Under the pieces are notes generated by a model that saw only the letters and a program-made list of their open reading frames with translations, made no database searches and was not told the origin of the DNA. Shown here one piece after another: positions 5,532-55,790 of a stretch of DNA of 64,000 nt. The translations under genes were made by a program, and so were the position numbers. Position 1 is the first letter of the stretch. Each line of letters opens with the position of its first letter. This stretch comes from Dictyostelium discoideum (taxonomy: Eukaryota), in the NCBI GenBank assembly GCA_000004695.1, contig CM000152.2:2592001-2656000 (forward strand). Reading direction: 5' to 3'.

Positions 5532-6253
5532 TTATTTAGTTTCAGCAAATAATTCTCTACCAATTAACATTCTTCTAATTTCACTTGTACCAGCACCAAT
5601 TTCATATAATTTAGCATCACGAAGTAAACGACCAGTTGGGAATTCATTGATGTAACCATTACCACCTAAAGTTTGAATTGCTTGTAAAGCCATTTGGGTT
5701 GCATTCTCAGCAGTGTATAAAATGACGGCAGCACAATCTTTACGAGAGGTGTAACCAGCATCGGCAGATTTAGCGACAGAGTAAACGTATGAACGACTTG
5801 CATTCAATAAAGTGTACATATCTGCGACTTTACCTTGCATCAATTGGAATTCACCAATTGGTTTACCAAATTGTTCACGTTGGTGAAGGTATGGAACAAC
5901 ATTATCCATACATGCTTGCATAATACCTAATGGACCAGCTGATAAAACTAAACGTTCATAATCCAAACCACTCATTAATACCTTGACACCACCACCAACA
6001 GTACCTAATACATTTTCATCTGGTACGAAACAATCTTCGAAAACTAATTCACATGTGTTACTTCCTCTCATACCAAGTTTATCTAATTTTTGACCAGTTG
6101 AAAAACCTTTCATCTCTTTTTCAATTAAAAATGCTGTAATACCTTTACTTCCTGCATTAATATCTGTCTTTGCATAAACAACTAAAACATTTGCATCTGG
6201 ACCATTTGTAATCCACATTTTATTACCATTTAATAACCAACCACCCTCTTTTT

Positions 6254-6299
<46 letters not shown>

Positions 6300-6325
6300 T
6301 TTATTATAACTACTATTATTTAATA

Positions 6326-6392
<67 letters not shown>

Positions 6393-6995: not shown

Positions 6996-7031
<36 letters not shown>

Positions 7032-7427
7032 AAAAAAAAAAAAAAAAAAAAAACAATGAAAAGTAAAAAATTTTTAGGTGCTGGTAAAAAAGGGGTTTTG
7101 GTCAATAAAAAAAATAAAAAAAAAAAGAAAAAAAAATGTTCCCACAAATCCAAAACACCTTAATTTTTATTATTAACAATTAAAAAAAAAATAAAATAAA
7201 AATAAAAATTATAAAGAAAAAAGTAATGGAAATTTTACTTGTTTTAATTTTTTAAAAAAATTTATAAAAAGGTAATCTATTGCTGATGTAATATTTATTA
7301 TAATGGTTTTTCATATTTTTAATTTATTTATTTATTTGTTTATTTATTTGTTTACTTATAATTTTTTATTTTTTTATTTTTTTTTTTTTTTTTTTTTTTA
7401 ATTTTAAAAACTAGTAGTAGTTAATTT

Positions 7428-7841
7428 TTAATTTATGAATGGTATAATTTTATATGTTGATTTTTTATATTCTTGGTATTGAGGATTTCCAGAAAATTTT
7501 TCATCTGATATTTTTTCCATCATTGGAGTTGAAATTTTTAACATTAAAAAACTTATAAATAAAGGAGAAATCAAAGAAATAAACTTATACCAATAAGAAT
7601 CCAATCCTCTAAAACAAATGAAATAAATTATCCAATGCATCATTATTTCAGAGAAATAATTTGGATGACGACAAAGTCTCTTCCATAATCCTTGGTTAAT
7701 AAATTTACCTTTATTCTCTGGTTTACCTAAAAATAGTGTTTTTTGTCCATCTGCAACAGCTTCAATTGTAAAAAATGTACTCCATAATAAAATTAATATA
7801 TAATCTATTAAACTAATAATAAGAAAAAAAAATAAAAAAAT

Positions 7842-7872
<31 letters not shown>

Positions 7873-8334
7873 TACATTTTATTTATTTTTTTATTTTATT
7901 TTATTTTATTTTTACCTTAAAGAAATTGAAAAATGTTGATGAGTAACTAATAATAAAGGAGTGATTGTAAAATTAATCCATAATGATTGCATGAACCAAT
8001 AGATGAAAAATTTTTTTGGGTTATTTCTAACTTTATCAAAACGTTTATCTTTTTTATTTCTTTTAATTCTATCGTTGAGAAAAATTACTAACCTACTTGA
8101 CCATACAATAATGAAAATTGATACAATTAATGCACGTCTTAACCCATAAACATATCCACTCTCTCCAATATGTTCAATTTCATAATAATAGTTTTTGACA
8201 AGTGATAATAATCCAACTAAAACAAATGTTCCACATCCAAAAACATCATAATATCTTTTTGATTTTATTAAAAATGCTGAATGTAAAAATCCAACAAATT
8301 GAATTAAAAAAACTGATAAATAAATCCCCAACAT
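7428..8334 (-). CDS. DUF1295-family membrane protein (steroid-5-alpha-reductase C-terminal-like / ICMT-like fold). There are 2 exons: 7916..8334 and 7428..7812. The intron is 7813..7915.
   Basis: Exon 1 carries the family signature ...IVWSSRLVIFLNDRIKRNKKDKRFDKVRNNP...FMQSLWI. Exon 2 carries GLWKRLCRHPNYFSEIMMHWIIYF (the xLWxYSRHPNYFGE motif of DUF1295). The donor is AG|GTAAAA (phase 2; the in-frame TAA at the donor is what ends track ORF 7912..8334). The acceptor is TTATTAG| at 7813, and the phases are consistent (419 nt + 385 nt). ATG is at minus 8334. Confidence 0.75.
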
Positions 8335-9488
8335 TTCCCAACCTTTTACCTCTATTTATTTTGTGTTTGTGTATGTGTGTATATATATTGTGATTTTAAA
8401 TTTTAATCTCAAAATTTTTTTTTTTTTTTTTTTTAATTTTGTTTTTTATTTTTTTTATTTTTTTTTTTTTATTTTTGAAATTAAAAAAATAAAATAAAAT
8501 AATAATAATTTCAAATTCAAGAAAAAAAAAAAAAAATAAAAAAAAAAAAAACAATAATAAACTTTTTTTTTTATTTTAAAATTTAATATTAAATTTTACT
8601 TTTTGATTTAAATTTTATCCAAAAAAAAAAAAAAAAGTTAAAAATTAAAAATTCATAGAAAAAAATTGTTTTAATCTTACTTTAATAATTTATAAAAAAA
8701 AGTTTTTACTTGAAAAGGATAAATGACAACAATTTTTTTTATTTAAAATTAATTAAATTTTCGATTATAGCAGAATTAAAAGATAACAAAATTCAAATAA
8801 TTTAAAAAATGGTTTGTTTGTTTTTATTTTTTTATTTTTTTTTTTTTTTTTTTTCTTTTCAAAAAAGATAAATTATATAGACAAATATTATTATATTATT
8901 ATTATTATTTGCTATTTATGGATATCATCATACTATCACAAAATCAAATTATATGAATTTTGTGTATTTTGAAGAGTTAATTTATTATTTATTTTTTTAA
9001 TTAAATAATTTTAAATTAATTATTTTTTATTTTTTTTTATTTTTTATTTTTTTTTAATGATTGAATATAAATTAAACTGATGGGGTATTATTCAACAAAT
9101 AAATAACCACACACCGTCGATAATTTATATTTTTTTTTTTTATTTTTTTTTTTTTTATTTTTTTTTTTTATATTTATTCCATTTTTTTTATTTTTTTAAT
9201 TTTTTTTTATTTTTAAATTATTATTTCAAACAATTTTTTACTTAATTACTCTTCAAATATTTCTCCCGATAATAATATTTCAAAATTTAAACTATAATTT
9301 TTTTGATTAAAAGTATCATATTTTACTTCCATGTTTTTTTTTTATGTGTGTGTGGTTTTTTTTTTTTTATAATGAGAAAAAAAAAAATATATTAAGATAT
9401 TGGGAGATCCAAAGATATTAAAAATAAACATTGCACATCATACTACCCACTATTTGGATTAGTTTTTTTTTTTTTTTTTTTCAATAAA

Positions 9489-9533
<45 letters not shown>

Positions 9534-9911
9534 AATCAAAAAAAAAAAAAGTCTATTATTAAAAAAACATAACAAAAAAAATATATAAATAATTTATATA
9601 CATATTTATTAGTGATATTAATAATTATAAATAATAATAATTATAAAAAAAATAAAATATTACTTTTTTGTAAGGTGTAAAAAAAAAAATCAAAAAAATT
9701 CGAAAATATATATTTTACCTATTAATAGTTGAAGAAGTAAAATTAAAAAAACCTAAAAAAAATAAAAAAAATGGCAAATCTGTGTATGTTAATGTGTGAA
9801 CATTTAAAATTATCTTTTTTTACTATTATTATATTAAAATTTAACTACTATAAATTTTTTTATTAAATATTTCACAAAAAAAAATTAAAAAAAAAATACC
9901 ACCATTCCAAG

Positions 9912-9968
9912 GGTAAGGCCTTTTTTTTTAATTTAATTTAATTTAATTTAATTTAATTTAATTTAATT
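9912..9968. repeat. (AATTT)n pentanucleotide repeat in intergenic DNA.
   Basis: The sequence aatttaatttaatttaattt... appears 11 times. Confidence 0.9.
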
Positions 9969-10210
9969 TTTTTCAATTTAATTTTTAATGGTAATTTAAT
10001 TTATTTTATTTTAATTTTTCCCAAATTATAACAAAATTTTTTTTTTTTTTTTAAACGTTTGTATTGTTTTTTTAAAGACAATTATTTATATAATAATAAA
10101 AAAAAAGAAATGTGAAAGAAAAAGAAAAAAAAAAAAAAAACCGTGTATGTGTTGGAAAAATTAATATTGATTCTTTATTTAGAGTAATTGTTTATTTGAA
10201 ATTTTTGTTG

Positions 10211-10248
<38 letters not shown>

Positions 10249-10285
10249 CTAAATTTTTATTTTTATTTTTATTTTTATTTTTTTT

Positions 10286-10326
<41 letters not shown>

Positions 10327-10495
10327 CCCTAAATAAAAACCAAATCAATAAATTAATAATAGAAAATAAAAATTTTAAATATTAACTAATCCATAGTTAT
10401 TATTATTTTTTTTTTTTCTTTTTTAATATTTATATATATATATTTATTCCTTTTTTTTTTTTTTATTAAACGAAGCGTTCGTTTTTCCTTTCAAA

Positions 10496-11108
10496 ATGGG
10501 ACATCAAATTTCTAAAGAAGATAATGGGTAATTATTATTAATATTAATAAATCAAAATATGCCAAACCTAATAATTTTTAATAATAATTTTTTTTTTTTT
10601 TTTTATAAATAATTATTAATCCACCCCAATTTTTAATTAATTTTTCAAAAATATCAATTTACTTACACCCCACACATTTACCCCACTTTTTATTTTTTTA
10701 TTTTTATATATATATATATATTTTTTTTTAAAAAAAAAAATCAATTTATATTTTACTTTTTTTTTTATATTATTTTTTATTTTGGATTTAGAGAACAAAG
10801 CAATAGTAATAATTTAAAGAAAGAACGTAGATATACAACCAACAGTAGTAATCTACATTTCCTTTATCAACAAGAAGAAGGAATTGGAATTAATTATAAA
10901 ACAGGATCAGCAAATAACAGTTTGAGCAATAGTACTAATAGTAATAATAATAATTATAATAATACAAATAGTAGTAATAATAATAATAATAGTGGAAATA
11001 ACAAAAAAATAACAGAAAGTACAAGTTTAGAAGATTTTAAACAATTTTCAACCACACTTTCAATTTCAAGTACAACACCACCTGACACACCAATAATTTC
11101 TTATAATA

Positions 11109-11147
<39 letters not shown>

Positions 11148-11956
11148 CAAATAAAGCTGTACATTTTACAAGAACAAGATCTAGATCATTAAATATAACA
11201 AATACAAGTAGAAATTTAAAGGTTACATCATCTCCAATCATAGATAGTCAGGTATGCGCACCAAATAACAGTTATAATAGTTCAATTCAATCTTTAAATT
11301 CATTATCATCTACAAATAGTTTATCAATCAATACAAATACAAATACATCATCATCATTATCATTATCTTCAAATTCTTCAAATAATAGTTTATCAACTCT
11401 AACTAATACAACTACTACAACAACAACTACTACAACCACTAATACAACACAACAACAACAACCTATAAAAGGTAGAAAATCAAAATCAAGTAACGCATTA
11501 TTTAAATCATTAAGATCATCTTTAACAGGTTCTTCAAGTAGTAATAGTAATAGTGGTAAAAAGAGATCATCTTCAATATCCTCTAGTACAAATAGTTTAG
11601 ATATAAATAGCGCCAATAATAATAATAATAATAATAATAGTTTAAAAGTATCATCAAAGAAATCATCAAAAGGGGGTTCACCAAATTCAAGTACAGAATC
11701 ACTTCAATCTTTATCAACATCAGCATCAGCATCATCATTAACATCCACACCACCATTACCACCAAAAAGTAATGCTTTTTCAAAATCTCAAAATTCAAGT
11801 GCATCATCATTAAATAAACAAGTTATATCATCATTACCACCATTAGCACCAACATCAACATTAACAACAACAACAACAAATTTAGAAGTTTCAAAAGAAT
11901 CTTTAAAGCCATCATCAACACCAATTGATAATAATTCTGTAGCAGATTCATCCTAC

Positions 11957-31255: not shown

Positions 31256-31273
31256 GGTCAAATTTTTAAAAAG

Positions 31274-31344
31274 TGCCGCGACCTGGAATCGAACCAGGGT
31301 CAACAGAGCCACAATCTGATGTACTACCACTATACTATCACGGC
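31274..31344 (-). tRNA. tRNA-His (anticodon GUG).
   Basis: The minus-strand sequence GCCGTGATAGTATAGTGGTAGTACATCAGATTGTGGCTCTGTTGACCCTGGTTCGATTCCAGGTCGCGGCA folds as a cloverleaf. It has a 7-bp acceptor stem (one G-U), a D arm, an anticodon loop CAGATTGTGGCT with GTG at positions 34-36, and a T arm GGTTCGATTCC. Confidence 0.85.
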
Positions 31345-40054: not shown

Positions 40055-40481
40055 TAGTATTTATAATTATATGAATTTAAAATTCATAATAATTAATTTA
40101 TAGATTTCAAGATTAAAGTTAAAATTAAACATTTAAGACAATATTTTTCCCCAAACAAAAATAAAATCCATTCTTTTAATTTTTTTTTTTCAAACAGCAA
40201 ATTCTGAAATTTCTTATATAATCTTTTTGAAAAATAAAAATAAATTAAAAGTTATTTATTTGTAATATATTGAGATAGGTATTTTTTTTTTTTTTGTTGT
40301 ATTTTTATTATTTTTATTTAAGTTTCAACAAATGATTTATAATTTAAAAACCAATATGGATAAAATGTTTAATTTACAATTTGTTTTTTAATTTTTCCTA
40401 AAGCTTTGAAAATACTATTTTTTTTTGAATTGGAATTGAAAATACTATCAATATCGCTATTAAAAATTAAATTTTCAACAA

Positions 40482-40553
40482 GTTTCGATAGCTCAGTGGA
40501 AGAGCAAGCGACTGCAAATCGTTAGGTCGCCAGTTCAATCCTGGTTCGGAACT
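40482..40553 (+). tRNA. tRNA-Cys (anticodon GCA).
   Basis: The sequence GTTTCGATAGCTCAGTGGAAGAGCAAGCGACTGCAAATCGTTAGGTCGCCAGTTCAATCCTGGTTCGGAAC folds as a cloverleaf. It has a 7-bp acceptor stem, D-arm GCTC/GAGC, anticodon loop CTGCAAA (GCA at 34-36), and a T-loop TTCAATC. Confidence 0.85.
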
Positions 40554-40666
40554 TTCATTTTTAATTTTTTATTTTGTTTTAAATGATTGCCCCCTCTGTT
40601 TCCTCTCGATTTATCATATTTTCATTAAAATCTGACCATATTTAAAAGAGATTCAGTCATTTTAAA

Positions 40667-40687
40667 GTAAAATTATTATAAAAAAAA
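40667..40687. repeat. 5' target-site duplication of the TRE3-type element: GTAAAATTATTATAAAAAAA(A).
   Basis: An identical 20-mer recurs at 45936..45955, immediately after the element's poly(A). Confidence 0.8.
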
Positions 40688-43600
40688 CCGTACCGCGATC
40701 AAGAGGATACAAGATAGACGTGAAAAGTAATTCATCCTTTTCTATCCTTAATCTCGGTCAATTTTAACCAATCTTTCAAAAAAAATCACCAATCCACCAC
40801 GATCTACAGATCTAACTTACCAAATCGCCGATTCAAAGGAATCCCATCGAGATGAATTCCTACGCAGACGCGGCTAAAATGGCCAACCCCTCCACCCATA
40901 TGGACGAGGCATCAGAGAACTTCATTAAGGAATTCTCCACAAAAACAGCAGAGATAAAGGAGACCTACCCCAAATTATCAATAGGCCTCAAAGACATCTC
41001 CAAATACTGCGAGACCATATTGAACATGACTGCGCTCTCAACCTACGAGAAAAACAACGGATTCTACCCAATTACACTCGAATTCCCCAAAATGGATCTC
41101 ATGGGGTTAGAAGAAATGAGAAAAACACTCTCAAACTACGATATCCCAATCGACAAGATATACATAGGCAAAGGAACTAGAAAAATGATCCACCTGATGA
41201 TTAAAAACGAACAATCTCTCCTAAATATCATTAGAGATAGAAGCAAATTGGGAACCTTCATCACCTCCAGTAGAGACTACCACGTCCTCACAGGAAGAGT
41301 AAGAATTCCAAGAGAAAAGGCAGGAATAGTGGACGCCCTCATCAAAACTGCCTTTGCAGAAGAAATACCCTATGCAATATACCATACTATATACTCCACC
41401 GACCACCTCCTAGTATTCGGTCTAATAGAATGCAAAATAGGCGATCAAATGAAATCTGGCCAACACAATACAGAAATCGCCAACTTTACCATCAGAACGG
41501 CCACCAAAACCTACTCCTCACAAAAGAAAAATAAGAAAGTAGAGTCAAACAACACGGAAGAACCATTAGAAGATGAGATGACAGATGATCCTCCCAACAC
41601 CCAAAACAGGATAGCAATCAAATCCTCTCAACCAAAACCACAACAACAAACAAACAACCCAGCAAAAAATCAGTCTGATAAACAATCAACCCAAGAGAAA
41701 AAAGCCCAATCAAAAAAGCCCTCTCAACCTCTTCCCCCCAAAAACCAAGCAGAATCTCAATCTGTCAAACCCACCACAACCACTACCACAACATCCAACG
41801 CCATCCAAAAAGACAATGCCAACAAAACGAGCACTAACATCCATTCATCCTCGGAAAACAGAGAGAAGACACCAAACATCCCTCCATCACATAAACGCAA
41901 GAACGAGGAAATCCACTCAAACAACGAGGTCACCCAACTCTCACCAACAATAAACAGAAGCAACCCTTACATCCCATCCACCCCTAAGACACCTGTCAAA
42001 AATGAAAGGAAAGGAATCATTGAGAGCTTCATAGAGAGTATCTACCCTTCACCATCCAAACCGCAGCTATACGACTCCCAAGAGGAGATCGATATCATCT
42101 CATAATGGTAGTAATCAAAATCAACCAATGGAATGTCAGAGGTTGGGGCACTGACACCTCCTTCAAAAACAAAACAGACTTTATCAAATCCCAATCCCCC
42201 CCAAACTCATTGGCACTAACCATAGTCAATGAACTCAACGCCGACGCAACACAAGCACACCAGCTATTTCCTGGCTCCATCATTAGCGCAACCAACAGAG
42301 GCAACGGAATAGGAATACTAAACCACAACAACCAAAACATAAAACTCTCACCAATATTCATAATAGAAGGTAGACTAATAATATCAGACATTCTAATAAA
42401 AGATACCACAACGAGAATCTTGGCCATATACGCCCCGGCCCAACCTGATAAAAGAAAAACACTAGCTTCAACACTAAACAAACACTTCAACAACCAATAC
42501 CACAACCTAACGTCTAACCCTAATAAAAACATCGACATCATAGCAGGCGACTTCAACTGTTTAGACTTCAATGACAATCACACATCAAATGATGACCAAG
42601 GCAACTTGACAACACAATCCCCAGATGAGATGGCCACAGTAATCGAAGCCATCAGAATTTCAAATAACCTAATGGATATGGACCAACTAAATAAAAGACC
42701 CACCTTCTCAAGAACGATACACAACACAAACAATAACCTCACAAGAATCTTGGAAAGGAGACTAGACAGAATATACCTTAACAATAGCATAATCAACTAC
42801 AGCCAATTATACTTAAGGAACCTAATCCCCCCAAAAATTAACAACATACCTCTATCAGATCACAACTTCCTATCAACCACCTTCACTCTACCCAACATAC
42901 AGATGAACATGCGCAGATGGAGATTAAAAAATCCTCAATCCTCTCAAGCATAATGCTTAAGAAAATAGACTTCCTACTTAACGATTATTCAAGGGAGTTG
43001 TCATCCAACCATAACTCTATTTCCTTCTCTCAACTCAACAGCTTACTGAACAAAATAAAACAACTATACACAGAATTTCAAAAACAAAACGACTACAACA
43101 ATAAGGCAAACATCAAAAATCTAATCTCCCTACTAGAGACAGAATTTAAAGACCAAGCCTTCGCAACCCTTTCAGCAATAAATGAATCTAAAAGAAGAGA
43201 AGAACAACTTAAACAAGAATTGAACAACTATTGCGAAGAAACCTCACTCAAGTACATCTCCGCGAGAATCAAGAAAAGACATAATGATTTCACCATCAAC
43301 GCAGTAAAAGATGCACAAGGTAGAACAATTAACAAACAGGAATTGATCGAAGAAGAATACGTAAAATATTACTCAAATCTTTATGACTACAAAGAAGATG
43401 ACCCACCATCTCATTATGAAATGTTGGAAAATTGGACAGTGACCAGGGACTCAACATGGGACAACCTTGAAAACGAATTCACATCACAAGAGATCCTAGA
43501 AGTAATAAAACAATTGAACCCACACAAATCTCCAGGCCCAGATGGAATTCCAAACTTATTCTACATAACACACAAAGAAAAACTAGCTCCAATACTGGCC

Positions 43601-45935
43601 TCAGCATTCAACGACACTCTAAGAAATCCTCATCTAATTAGCAAAAATTACAAAGAAGGCCTCATTATCACGATACCTAAAAAGGGAGACCCCGAACTAA
43701 TCAAAAACAGAAGACCAATTACACTGGCCAACTGTATATATAAAATCCACTCAAAACTAATAAACAATAGAATAATCCCAATACTAACGAAAGTGATCAA
43801 CCACAATCAAAAAGGTTTCGTACCAGGCAGATTCATTCTAGATAATATCATATCAATGAACGAATTAATCAACTATTGTAATGATAAAAGAATAAACGGA
43901 ATAATTACACTATATGATTTCGAAAAAGCTTTTGACTCGATCTCACACGGTTCAATACTCAGATCACTACAACACATCAACATTCCAACCAATATAATCA
44001 ACCTGATAATGAATCTACTCACCAAATCTGAAGCAAGAATTGAAATTAATGGTAGAACTACTATACCCTTTGAGATCAAAAGAGGAGTTAAACAAGGAGA
44101 TCCACTATCACCCACCCTGTTCGTCCTTGTAATAGAGGCTTTAGCTAGAAAAATTTTACAAGATGACCGAATTACTGGCCTTCCTCTAAACAACAGCAAC
44201 CACAGAGAGAAATTCCAAAGCTTTGCAGACGACTCGGCTTCAATGGTCCCAGACTCTCAACAACTTGAATTAGTACTACAACACTTCAATTCATTTTGCA
44301 AAGCCACTTCCTCAAAACTAAACATCGACAAATCTTCATCAATTCTTATAGGCAACCCAGACAATACCAACCAAAGAATTCCAATATCTACAAATCCAGA
44401 AAGATACTTGGGATACTTCTTCACAGGCAAAGGGATAACAAGAAAAATGCCAGAAATATTAAACACAATAAGATCATCCTTAGTACTATGGAAAACCACT
44501 GACTCAACAATCAAAACCAAAACCAACATCCTCAAAGCATTCGCACTCTCTAAATTAACCTACTATTCATATGTAGAGAACTTTAAGGAAGAGGAATTAA
44601 ACCAAATCAATAAATTAGTCGAATGGTTTTTATCGGCACCAAACAACAAAAATGCTAGTGGATTTCAAGTTATTAATTTAATGAGAACCAAAAGAGCAAG
44701 ATACCCACTAAAAGTAGGAGGCTGGAACATTTGGAATATAGAATTGAGACAACTGGCGCAGAAACTTTGGATCATAAACCAGTTCATCCTAGCACTAGAA
44801 ACCAAACAAACAAACTCATCTCATCACAAAAGCTGGGAATATCAGATCCAAAAAAACAAATTCACATCCAGATACCTAAAAGAAAACTTAGACGAATGGA
44901 ACAAAATAAGAATAAAAAAAGCAATCTTCAACAATAATCTCACATCCATAAAAAACGAAAATGGACAACCACTTTCACTGGCAGAATGGTATACCACAAT
45001 TCAAGACCAAAATCCAACCATCCCTAAAACGGAATTCCAATCATCTCTAAACTTAAGAGGCTACAGCTATAATCAACTCTTCAACAATATACTGAAGATA
45101 AAAGACCCTAAAACAAGAGACACAATGTTTAGATTCCATGCCAGATGCCTTCCAATAAACTACCTTCACAACAAACAATGCCCACTCTGCAAAGAAGATA
45201 TGAGCAAAGACCCATACGGTCACCTGTTCTTCTCATGCAAGAAAACAAAACAATTCATAAAAATAAATAAACTCAAAAATTTCATCTTTATTACCACAGG
45301 CAAAGGTAAAAACTGGCACCATACAAGAATTAGGCAAAATAACAATTTCATTAATAGAATAACTCCAAAATTATCACCGACAGCCAAAAAAGATCAAGAA
45401 GTGAATGCAGATTACGCCAACCACAGATTCCACAAAGAATACTTTGAATGGAACTATAAAGCAATAGACTATGATCTAACCAGATCATTCGCATATAGAA
45501 ACCTAATGGCCCTTATCCTCCACAACATTTGGATTTGGATTTGCAATCAAATATACAGTGAAGATCCTTTAACAGATGAATCACTATCATACAGCTCCCT
45601 TCTAAAGAAATGGCACAAATTGGCCACTCTAGAATACATCAAAAAAGCAAAAGATCTGAAAAACTTATCAGCAAAAGACCATAATAACTTCAAAGATCCT
45701 AAGATCCTTCTCACTTCAACGATCAAGCTAAGAAAAACAACAGCTAATTACTATTGTATTCCAGAATCATCTCTCCCAAATATTATATCTTTTGATCAAT
45801 TCATATGATTAAAATAACCCTTCAGCTTAAATGATAAGCCTTTAAATAAATATTAAATAAAACTCGTATTAACACAGATGGACATATATCAATCTTGTTA
45901 ATCCAATATTAAAAAAAAAAAAAAAAAAAAAAAAA
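40688..45935 (+). mobile_element. Full-length non-LTR (LINE-like) retrotransposon of the tRNA-targeted TRE3 type (size and position fit TRE3-A/Tdd-3). It is 5,248 bp. ORF1 is 40852..42105. ORF2 is split: the APE endonuclease part is 42105..42953 and the RT plus C-terminal Cys-rich zinc-finger part is 42917..45808. It ends in a 3' poly(A) at 45911..45935.
   Basis: The element is distinctly GC-richer than its surroundings. ORF2a has an AP-endonuclease fold (INQWNVRGW...IAGDFNC...SDH). ORF2b has RT motifs (RPITLANCIYKIHSKLI, LYDFEKAFDSISH, the FADD motif in QSFADDSASMV, and C-terminal CPLCKEDMS...HLFFSC). The ORF1 stop and ORF2 start overlap as TAATG at 42103-42107. It was inserted 134 bp downstream of tRNA-Cys in the same orientation. 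It is flanked by a 20-bp direct repeat. Confidence 0.7.
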
Positions 45936-45955
45936 GTAAAATTATTATAAAAAAA
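45936..45955. repeat. 3' target-site duplication of the TRE3-type element.
   Basis: GTAAAATTATTATAAAAAAA follows the poly(A) tail and matches 40667..40686. Confidence 0.8.
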
Positions 45956-49845: not shown

Positions 49846-53863
<4,018 letters not shown>

Positions 53864-53963
53864 NNNNNNNNNNNNNNNNNNNNNNNNNNNNNNNNNNNNN
53901 NNNNNNNNNNNNNNNNNNNNNNNNNNNNNNNNNNNNNNNNNNNNNNNNNNNNNNNNNNNNNNN
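53864..53963. other. Assembly gap (100 N).
   Basis: A run of n characters. It is flanked on one side by a low-complexity coding exon and on the other by the terminal inverted repeat of a repeat element. Confidence 0.99.
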
Positions 53964-55790
53964 AATTACCTTATTAATTTCAGCAGCCATATTAATTTCA
54001 GCATGTACATAGCTGCCAAAATTAATATGGTAATTTTGGCATAGAAAAAAAAAAAGTCAAAGTCATTTAATTAATAATCATCTCAAATATAAACAAAATT
54101 TTAGTACTAAAATTAATATTATTATTATTTTTATTTTAATAATTATAATAATAAAAAAAAAAAAAAAAATTTTCATATTATTTTATTTATATCTTTTATT
54201 TATTTTTATCTTTTTATTTTTATTATTAATTTTATAATTTATTTTCATTTCTTTTTTTTTTAGTTGATATATATTTTTTTATTATTCATTTATTTCTAAG
54301 GCTAACAAAAAAAAAAAATTAAAAATAAAAAAAAAAAATAAAATAAAAAAAAAAAAAAAAAAATTAAAATAATTTTTTTTTTTTAATTTTTTTTTTTTAA
54401 TTATCTACTCTTCTACTTACTCTTTTGTTACTAACAGATGAAGTTTCGTTTGAAAATCTTTTGGTGAAAAAATCAGCATCAGATTGTAATTGATTAGCTC
54501 TTTTTTTACCCGTTTTGTTTTTGTTTGATTGAGTTGTGATTCCACCATTATTGGAAGTTGTTGCAGCTTCATGTGTTGATCTAACTTCGGTGGTAGAGTG
54601 CTCGATTGCTTTTCCAACTAGGTCATCTGTTGATTTTCTTTTGGTTATTTCGATATCCCTTTGCAATTTATTTTTACTTGAGAGTTTGGTGGCCTCTATT
54701 CTAGAAGTAGGCTCAGTATTGTAATAAGCCTTTATAATAGCAGAATGATTATCTGCTTTATAATGATTACTGATGTGCTGTTGACACTGGTTTTGATTAA
54801 TCATATGAGAGACACCATCTTCATCTTTGTTAAGCCTAACCTTCTCTATAATCTTCACTAAGTCTTTTGGGTACCAATTTTTTCTTTTTATCTTTATCAA
54901 TATAAAACACTTCTTTAATAGTTGCCGTACCATATTCTACATTCTCAACAACATACTGTTTATCCAAAATGTTTTTCCAATAGCTTATATTTTGTCCACT
55001 CAATTTGGTATTATGAAATTTATAATCTATTTTAAATTTTACATCTTCGTCATATTTTTCCAAGAGTTTTTTTAATTTATTTTTATTATTTTTTCAATTT
55101 CTGTTGCAGAAAGTTGATTATTTAATTTATTGTCTTTACTGAAGACCATTTTTTGGAACGAAAACTTTAAAAAAATAAAAAAATAAAAAAAAAAATACTT
55201 TTTTTTTTTAATTTTTTATTTTTATATTTTTTTTTTTATATTTTTTTTTTTTAAATTTTTTTTTTTAATTTTTTTTTTTTATTTTATTTTTTTTAAGTTT
55301 CGAACAATTATATATAAAAAAAAAGTAAAAGATATCCCTTCGGTTAATTAAATAATAATAATAATAATAATAATAATATAATAATAATAATAATAATAAT
55401 ACTTATTTCGAAATGTTTAAACAATCATACAGTTTAAAATTAAATAAATTGTTTTAAACCACCACTTTTTTTGAACACATGAAAATAAATAAGATATAAA
55501 AATAATAAGATAAAAAAAGATTTTTTTTTTTTTTTTTTTTTTATTTTATAATTATTCTTGTCGTCAGTATTGTTACTATAATTAATCCCATGAGTTTTTT
55601 TTATTATTATTTTTAATTCTTTTATATTTGAGATGATTATTATTAATTAAATGACTTTGAGTTTTTTTTTTTATATTTCTATGCCCAAAATTACCATATT
55701 AATTTCAGCAGCCATATTAATTTCAGCCTAAAATAGTTGGTCTGTGCATGCCAAAATTAATATGGCTGCTGAAATTAATATGGTAATTCT
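53964..55790. mobile_element. Putative DNA-transposon-like unit, unclassified. The left inverted repeat is 53964..54098 (truncated by the gap). The right inverted repeat is ~55608..55790. The ~1.5-kb internal region carries one frameshifted ORF on the minus strand. The subterminal regions are built from 16-bp palindromic units GCTGAAATTAATATGG / CCAAAATTAATATGG and their complements.
   Basis: Region 54003..54098 (GCATGTACATAGCTGCCAAAATTAATATGGTAATTTTGGCATAGAAAAAAAAAAAGTCAAAGTCATTTAATTAATAATCATCTCAAATATAAAC) matches the reverse complement of 55608..55710 at ~90%. Region 53964..54002 matches the reverse complement of ~55740..55790. The core AATTAATATGG recurs >=10 times in both orientations. 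Confidence 0.5.
54397..55063 (-). CDS. Internal ORF of the IR-bounded element. Track ORFs 54836..55063 and 54397..54933 become one ~250-aa reading frame with a single -1/+1 shift in the A-run GATAAAGATAAAAAGAAAAAATTGG. It is hypothetical and basic, with a Ser/Thr-rich C-terminal part.
   Basis: The two overlapping frames (MEKYDEDVKFKIDYKFHNTKLSGQNISYWKNILDKQYVVENVEYGTATIKEVFYIDKDKKK... and ...KNWYPKDLVKIIEKVRLNKDEDGVSHM...KRANQLQSDADFFTKRF...) switch within a homopolymer run. No confident homology was found. Confidence 0.35.

Follow-up and report, generated by a model that had tools for sequence, protein, structure and literature searches.

A TRE3-type retrotransposon, most likely TRE3-A, behind a tRNA-Cys gene of Dictyostelium discoideum, with an ORF2 split by the loss of one A

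The TRE3 family of retrotransposons has been known from the 1990s onward in Dictyostelium discoideum, a model organism whose genome is fully sequenced, and its member TRE3-A, formerly named Tdd-3, is a non-LTR element of the L1 clade. All TREs contain two open reading frames (ORFs), the second of which encodes an endonuclease of the apurinic/apyrimidinic type (APE), together with a reverse transcriptase (RT) plus a zinc finger (ZF) (PMC5006619, PMC5633606). TRE3 elements integrate 40–150 bp downstream of a tRNA gene and in the same orientation as that gene (PMC5911963), the range given for TRE3-A being 14–228 bp, and the consensus lengths are 5,229 bp for TRE3-A, 5,279 bp for TRE3-B, 4,734 bp for TRE3-C and 1,559 bp for TRE3-D, the last of these being partial (PMC5006619, Table 1). 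In published counts, 13 of 67 TRE3-A copies are full-length with intact ORFs. TRE5-A (DRE) is similar in belonging to the L1 clade, in its APE-RT-ZF ORF2 and in targeting tRNA genes, but TRE5 elements are oriented against the tRNA gene, approximately 50 bp upstream of which they insert, and their untranslated regions are modular. The copy described here is found in D. discoideum contig CM000152.2 of assembly GCA_000004695.1, within a stretch of 64,000 nucleotides (nt; positions 2,592,001 to 2,656,000 of the forward strand) that is referred to as the window. We read it as a full-length copy of the known element TRE3-A, located behind a tRNA-Cys gene, whose ORF2 has been broken by the loss of one A, and we hold this reading with a probability of approximately 0.93.

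The window element resembles TRE3-A in position, lying downstream of the tRNA gene in the same orientation with a gap of 132 nt, and in its coding content and ends, with two ORFs, an ORF2 containing APE, RT and a CCHC motif, a poly(A) tail and a target-site duplication. It also belongs to the most abundant family of its type in the protein collection. It differs in that ORF2 is split into pieces of 282 and 963 amino acids (aa) by the lost A, and it is not among the 13 intact copies. TRE3-B, TRE3-C and TRE3-D share integration behaviour and domain order with the window element, but their consensus lengths fit it less well.

The split was analyzed by comparing DNA rather than gene models, as eukaryotic models can hide frameshifts in invented introns. 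Sixteen other copies, 12 from D. discoideum and four from D. citrinum, were fetched by ORF1 identity with no selection on the state of ORF2. All 16 read across the junction in a single frame, and 14 of them contain a single ORF2 of 1,234 aa. Copies L001–L005 of D. discoideum each have an uninterrupted ORF2 of this length that starts with MVVIKINQWN and contains seven A's (A7) at the run where the window has six (A6). Seven further D. discoideum junctions (L011, L012, L013, the second L014 copy, and partial neighbours in L004, L005 and L014) are in one frame, as are the D. citrinum copies L007–L010, in which the site reads AAAAAAT, has the same length as A7 and encodes K-N. The junction sequence is TTAAAAAATCC in the window and at L006, which is the same locus in an independent assembly, TTAAAAAAATCC in the other copies and TTAAAAAATTCC in D. 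citrinum. At the split the APE frame reads TGG AGA TTA AAA AAT CCT and onward to TAA (W R L K N P Q S S Q A stop), and the -1 frame continues with AAA AAA TCC TCA ATC (K K S S I L). In a whole-element alignment of 15 sequences ORF2 contains no indel other than the missing A at 42931, which is private to the window's locus, and A6 was found only at this locus among the copies compared. The mutation that splits ORF2, the loss of one A from A7, is private to this locus.

An earlier note on this DNA had described an endonuclease part ending at 42953 and an RT part starting from the ATG at 42917, in different frames with a 37-nt overlap, and all of this is present. It had left the choice between a frameshift mutation and an unrecognised programmed shift or reinitiation, and had proposed asking whether other genomic copies share the 42917–42953 frame arrangement. 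None of the 16 do; they run continuously across the junction, and the window copy differs from them there by a single-A deletion. The mutation is hence what was found, and the programmed shift or reinitiation did not hold up as a feature of the family, the split being present in none of the 16.

Searching with the fused ORF2 protein identified a 90%-identity cluster (P0001, 79 Dictyostelium members) whose representative reads MNKRRWRLKKSSILSSIMLKK, with WRLKKSSIL at the junction. P0003, a relative with 58% identity, has NKRWRLKRASILSYQM there, with WRLKRASIL, and distant L1-like homologues contain WRLNSS or WKFNSS at the same position, conforming to a W-x-L/F-N/K-x-S motif after the endonuclease domain. 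The frame break falls inside this conserved motif, W-R-L-K-K/N-S-S in its local form, just after the endonuclease domain. Neither the 963-aa nor the 282-aa ORF product of the window is in the protein collection, and no second locus with the split was found in this manner.

Public ORF2 models at the other TRE3-A copies (L001–L005 and L007–L014, approximately 7779–10958) begin at an internal methionine, MATVIEA, which corresponds to window position 42630, and are 1,059 aa in length. Since most annotated proteins have this length and this start, we considered whether a further frame break lay close to where the APE domain begins, an idea that was rejected: the DNA is open from MVVIK and encodes 1,234 aa, and no methionine occurs between the MVVIK and MATVIEA starts. 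The 1,059-aa models are annotation artefacts. At the window's own locus, the model in L006 (7779–10957) is 1,025 aa in length and bridges the frameshift with an invented intron. Protein P0002 likewise joins ORF1 to ORF2 in a model that bridges frames.

The boundaries of the element are sharply marked. Two exact occurrences of the 20-mer GTAAAATTATTATAAAAAAA, the only ones in the 64-kb window, bracket a 5,249-bp block that ends in a pure poly(A) tail of 25 A's. Without the tail the body measures 5,224 bp from ACCG to the tail start, plus a 6–7-nt A leader, so that among the published consensus lengths it is closest to TRE3-A. The 5' end common to all copies is CCG(C/T)ACCGC(G/T)ATCAAGAGG. Self-BLAST detected no internal or terminal repeats in the element, which, having a 3' poly(A) tail and a flanking repeat of the target-site type, has the features of a non-LTR retrotransposon (one lacking long terminal repeats). 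Its G+C content is 37% versus 23% in the window, and its strand composition is strongly biased toward A and C. The closest protein matches of the window are all from D. discoideum. The earlier note had proposed a 5.25-kb full-length element with a poly(A) tail, downstream of a tRNA gene and co-oriented with it, which agrees with the tRNA-Cys predicted by ARAGORN on the plus strand and with the plus-strand element between the repeats. Its tRNA-Cys was correct with the exception of the start, given as 40482 where ARAGORN places it at 40481, and its gap of 134 bp was counted as 132 nt, a trivial difference. No external B box was obvious by eye in 40555–40666, a region that was not scanned systematically.

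A tRNA gene on the same strand is found immediately upstream of 10 of 13 related loci, which carry relatives of 94–99% identity located at different tRNA genes. The distance from the tRNA 3' end to the CCG start is 69–111 nt in five measured loci and up to 133 nt when the window is included; among the remaining loci it is approximately 105–145 nt in four and approximately 315 nt in one. Two of the loci without an upstream tRNA gene are second members of tandem arrays. Such head-to-tail TRE3-A tandems were seen in the 3' flanks at L004/L014, L005 and L013, the second element lying a few tens of bp past the first poly(A), and they agree with the repeated targeting of one tRNA gene that is described in the literature. 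In the protein collection the family is represented by clusters of 79 (ORF2) and 37 (ORF1) members, versus one for the relative P0003. That protein, only 58% identical where the abundant family is 99% identical, is probably one of TRE3-B, TRE3-C or TRE3-D; its locus, L015, is degenerate and has no nearby tRNA gene, and was of no help in naming subfamilies. Position, orientation, length, domain order and the tRNA context of the relatives support the classification as a TRE3-type non-LTR retrotransposon of a known kind, which was also the assignment of the earlier note. On length, abundance and context the subfamily is most likely TRE3-A.

Assignment to TRE5 or to another non-LTR family, with the position behind a tRNA gene being coincidental, has in its favor only the similarity that L1-clade ORF2 proteins generally share and is extremely improbable in view of the co-oriented tRNA genes upstream of the close relatives. 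By identity and tRNA context, which bear on the grouping indirectly, none of the relatives with 58–99% identity is TRE5-like, those with 94–99% identity being downstream of tRNAs. The only TRE5-like relative found, P0004, has 30% identity, is oriented head-to-head with a tRNA-Pro gene and has the longer architecture expected of TRE5. At its locus in D. citrinum (L016) the tRNA-Pro gene is located at 6316–6387 (-) and the element at 7001–11783 (+); two ORFs, of 456 and 1,071 aa, are combined in its annotated product of 1,560 aa, and the sequence served as an outgroup. With respect to the split itself, the A6 run could represent a homopolymer-length error in the assembly, the real copy having A7 and an intact ORF2. 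Sequencing errors are commonest at homopolymer runs, the copy is otherwise undamaged (ORF1 is intact and a conceptually repaired ORF2 has no stops), and the window assembly is gapped, with 100 N at 53864–53963. However, the independent assembly (L006, GCA_054883475.1) has the same tRNA-Cys, flanks and direct repeat at this locus and also contains A6 and the 282-aa truncated ORF. Because eight substitutions and the lengths of three flanking A/T tracts distinguish L006 from the window, the two are not simple copies of each other, and the presence of A6 in the second assembly therefore makes a sequencing error unlikely; a homopolymer error shared by both assemblies is likewise unlikely. In addition, the L006 annotators had to resort to a 1,025-aa model, with one base less than the models elsewhere, and neither Sanger nor modern long-read data would be expected to err systematically on a run as short as seven bases. 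We therefore give little credence to an assembly error.

The possibility that all functional TRE3 copies are arranged in this way, obtaining their RT through a programmed -1 frameshift or through reinitiation at AUG 42917, is next to untenable. It is true that the downstream frame is -1 and that the overlap holds a slippery heptamer, A_AAA_AAU (42926–42932), which lies in the zero (APE) frame, is in register for tandem slippage and fits X_XXY_YYZ. A review also holds a -1 frameshift to be necessary for TRE3-A ORF2 (PMC5911963), but this refers to the ORF1/ORF2 junction and not to the present site. The heptamer was made by the deletion itself, TTA AAA AAA TCC becoming TTA AAA AAT CC, and the conserved frame arrangement expected among functional copies under programmed frameshifting is lacking, given the 16 copies from two species that cross the site in one frame. 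The 58%-identical relative and the distant L1-like proteins also read through, the break cuts a conserved motif, and the literature describes two ORFs in all TREs. A programmed site would be expected to have a stable stimulatory structure 5–9 nt downstream, but no significant RNA structure was detected in the 100 nt downstream of the run (42933–43032), for which the minimum free energy is -13 kcal/mol (z = -1.42), a value equalled or bettered by 17 of 200 shuffled sequences. Because ORF2 is continuous in the other copies, a programmed frameshift as a feature of the TRE3 family is refuted. It is conceivable, though unlikely, that this one copy is leaky, with ribosomal slippage at the heptamer or polymerase slippage on the A run restoring a little full-length ORF2 protein. 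The heptamer is in the correct register, the slipped product, WRLKNSSIL, equals the local junction sequence of the D. citrinum copies, and the remainder of ORF2 is without stop codons. Unstimulated slippage on such heptamers is typically in the range of 1% or less, and because the site is accidental and has no stimulatory structure downstream, any read-through would be small; nor would an accidental site have been selected for efficiency. If the copy were nonetheless leaky, it would be weakly autonomous and would illustrate how a frameshift site can come about accidentally in nature.

Several considerations weigh against our reading of the locus as a TRE3-A copy broken by one deletion. The comparison copies were chosen for an intact or near-intact ORF1, such that young functional elements are over-represented among them. 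L006 may have been polished against the window assembly, which leaves a shared homopolymer error a small probability. The timing of the deletion, after insertion or already in the source transcript, is deduced solely from its absence in other copies, and the TRE3-A call rests on length, abundance and context rather than on alignment to a named consensus.

The eight substitutions between L006 and the window are clustered at window positions 42042–42644 (L006 7191–7793), with none elsewhere in the element. At seven of the eight sites the window base is also found in other TRE3-A copies (in two copies at six sites and in six at one), L006 having the majority base. This pattern could be due to gene conversion, to a strain difference, or to reads from other copies having been mis-assembled into one of the assemblies.

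Features of the retrotransposon locus, in window coordinates
Feature	Position	Strand	Basis
tRNA-Cys(GCA) gene, integration landmark	40481..40554	+	ARAGORN; same tRNA at this locus in the second assembly, L006
Flanking direct repeat GTAAAATTATTATAAAAAAA, 5' copy	40667..40686		exact match to 3' copy
Full-length TRE3-A-type non-LTR retrotransposon, 5,249 bp including poly(A) tail	40687..45935	+	end-to-end alignment with 14 other copies
5' untranslated region, begins (A)CCGTACCGCGATCAAGAGG	40687..40851	+	same 5' end in all copies
ORF1, 417 aa, intact	40852..42105	+	ORF translation; no Pfam domain
ORF1 stop/ORF2 start overlap (TCATAATGG; UAAUG), ORF2 in -1 frame	42101..42107	+	direct reading
ORF2 part 1: APE endonuclease (~42129-42863), 282 aa, premature TAA at 42951-42953	42105..42953	+	Pfam, alignment
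A6 run, site of the one-base deletion (A7 elsewhere) splitting ORF2	42926..42931	+	comparison of copies
ORF2 part 2, -1 frame: linker, RVT_1 (~43673-44416), C-terminal region	42932..45808	+	Pfam, ORF
CCHC zinc-finger-like motif CPLCKEDMSKDPYGHLFFSC, CX2CX10HX4C	45179..45238	+	read from translation; no Pfam match
3' untranslated region and 25-nt poly(A) tail (45911-45935)	45809..45935	+	direct reading
Flanking direct repeat GTAAAATTATTATAAAAAAA, 3' copy	45936..45955		exact match to 5' copy

The domain order of the element is APE, RT and zinc finger, preceded by ORF1, as had been proposed, and the assignments are borne out by Pfam, by an APE profile and by the CCHC motif. An annotated protein of a D. 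discoideum assembly (KAM9949519.1) is identical to the ORF1 product and falls in the 37-member cluster, formed at 90% identity. Within ORF2 the 963-aa ORF (42917–45808) matches Pfam RVT_1 with an E of 8e-34; its frame is open from 42842, 42917 being the first ATG. Each of the three ORFs is in the -1 frame relative to the preceding one. For the 282-aa ORF the Pfam Exo_endo_phos match has an E of 1.3e-3, which is under the Pfam cut-off, yet covers the whole profile. The catalytic APE residues N10, E43, Y109, D149, N151, D221, D252 and H253 are invariant in an alignment with seven L1-like homologues. The endonuclease sequence is divergent: when the PDB was searched with this ORF as a single sequence only spurious interferon-gamma matches were obtained and a profile was needed; the nine-sequence APE profile matches the human LINE-1 endonuclease and ORF2p with E values of 1e-53 to 1e-49, those for the endonuclease being 1e-53 to 1e-51. 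In the intact copy L001, residues 312–820 of the RT region are collinear with residues 311–823 of human L1 ORF2p (E 3e-50). Similarity to the human protein hence extends over the endonuclease catalytic residues and the RT core; in contrast, human LINE-1 does not target tRNA genes, has an unrelated ORF1 and differs in the spacing of ORF1 and ORF2.

ORF1 and ORF2 overlap by TAATG, as the earlier note had read, and the overlap is kept in D. discoideum and D. citrinum copies, with ATG changed to ATA in two (L013 and L014). Stop-start overlaps serve termination-reinitiation coupling in some other non-LTR elements, and Kojima and colleagues are said to have reported UAAUG stop-start translational coupling in 2005 for SART1, a non-LTR element of the silkworm. 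The UAAUG overlap of TRE3 is alike in form and may act by such coupling; a review instead describes the TRE3-A ORF1/ORF2 junction as a -1 frameshift (PMC5911963). The L013 and L014 sequences, in which the ORF2 start has changed from TAATG to TAATA (approximately 7248–7254), also contain a 3-nt in-frame deletion in ORF1, which is thereby 416 aa in length. As judged from the start codon, this mutation would be a different route to losing ORF2 expression.

The length of the target-site duplication is less certain than the exactness of the repeat would imply. The earlier note gave it as 20 bp; the exact 20-bp repeat is confirmed, but 20 bp does not stand as a firm length, given the A-rich leaders of other copies. 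In seven of eight other copies with both junctions readable, the duplicated target ends 5–15 nt before the conserved CCG(C/T)ACCGCG, with an A-rich leader in between. At the 5' junctions of L001–L005 and L014 (approximately 5820–5836) this leader measures 5–15 nt and is often (GAT)(C)AAAAAAA. Either the transcript truly begins with it or it consists of additional nucleotides acquired at integration, and because it intervenes between the duplicated target and the CCG start, duplication lengths are ambiguous. The duplicated target in the eight copies is 6–19 bp in length (9–19 bp in seven). Since seven A's close the target sequence of the window copy, the A's that end the 5' repeat look no different from a leader, and part of the seven may belong to the element. 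Similarly, three A's before the 3' repeat copy are indistinguishable from the poly(A) tail, and the direct repeat reaches 23 bp if these are counted. The true duplication of the window copy is thus about 13 to 23 bp, the 20 bp having been called an upper bound. At L002 (5813–5836) the first ~22 nt of the element (CCGCACCGCGATCAAGAGGATA) are duplicated at the 5' junction.

The copies L007–L010 of D. citrinum (GCA_054859145.1) are approximately 94.5% identical to D. discoideum TRE3-A, have intact ORF1 and ORF2, and are located downstream of different tRNA genes. Their ORF1 proteins are identical and each copy has 291 differences from the window, a pattern of sequences which suggests recent TRE3-A activity in D. 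citrinum.

Elsewhere in the window, a tRNA-His(GTG) gene is located at 31273–31344 (-); self-BLAST found no TRE3-A-like sequence adjoining it, other element families not having been checked. A composition anomaly at 50–53 kb raised the possibility of a second retroelement on the opposite strand, which was rejected in favor of a glutamine/asparagine-rich host ORF. This ORF of 1,213 aa, at 49846–53487 (-), is rich in Q, N, E/R and S repeats, has a skew that mirrors that of the retrotransposon, and is a low-complexity host gene. The 100-N assembly gap lies inside a 124-aa minus-strand ORF at 53616–53990.

The state of the copy is that of a young insertion hit by one disabling mutation. In the whole-element alignment the D. 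discoideum copies differ from it at 55–87 positions and the D. citrinum copies at 291. Besides the deletion it has 13 private substitutions in approximately 5.2 kb (0.27%), and seven of the 12 coding ones are synonymous. Neither part of ORF2 contains an in-frame stop other than the one due to the shift, conceptual repair of ORF2 yields a protein with 13–16 amino-acid differences from the D. discoideum copies, the two flanking repeats match perfectly, the poly(A) tail consists of A's only and ORF1 is intact. Functional copies would produce an mRNA with ORF1 and a single 1,234-aa ORF2 (APE, RT and CCHC) whose AUG overlaps the ORF1 stop as UAAUG. Such an element would have inserted, probably by target-primed reverse transcription, some 110–130 bp downstream of the tRNA-Cys gene and in its orientation, leaving a poly(A) tail and a target-site duplication. 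One A was lost from A7, presumably after insertion, leaving A6, so that ORF2 now stops at 42953 after 282 aa, with the RT and zinc-finger part in the -1 frame.

Because ORF2 ends after the endonuclease domain, and no RT is produced from the normal frame, the window copy is not autonomous. The element is already known, the copy is dead and the defect is a trivial homopolymer deletion, such that the significance is small beyond annotation. The most that could be expected of this young pseudo-element, whose ORF1 is intact, is transcription or mobilisation in trans. For D. discoideum and the TRE3 family, the locus should be annotated as one full-length TRE3-A pseudo-element with an intact ORF1, and not as two or three genes, and it should not be counted as a retrotransposition-competent TRE3-A.

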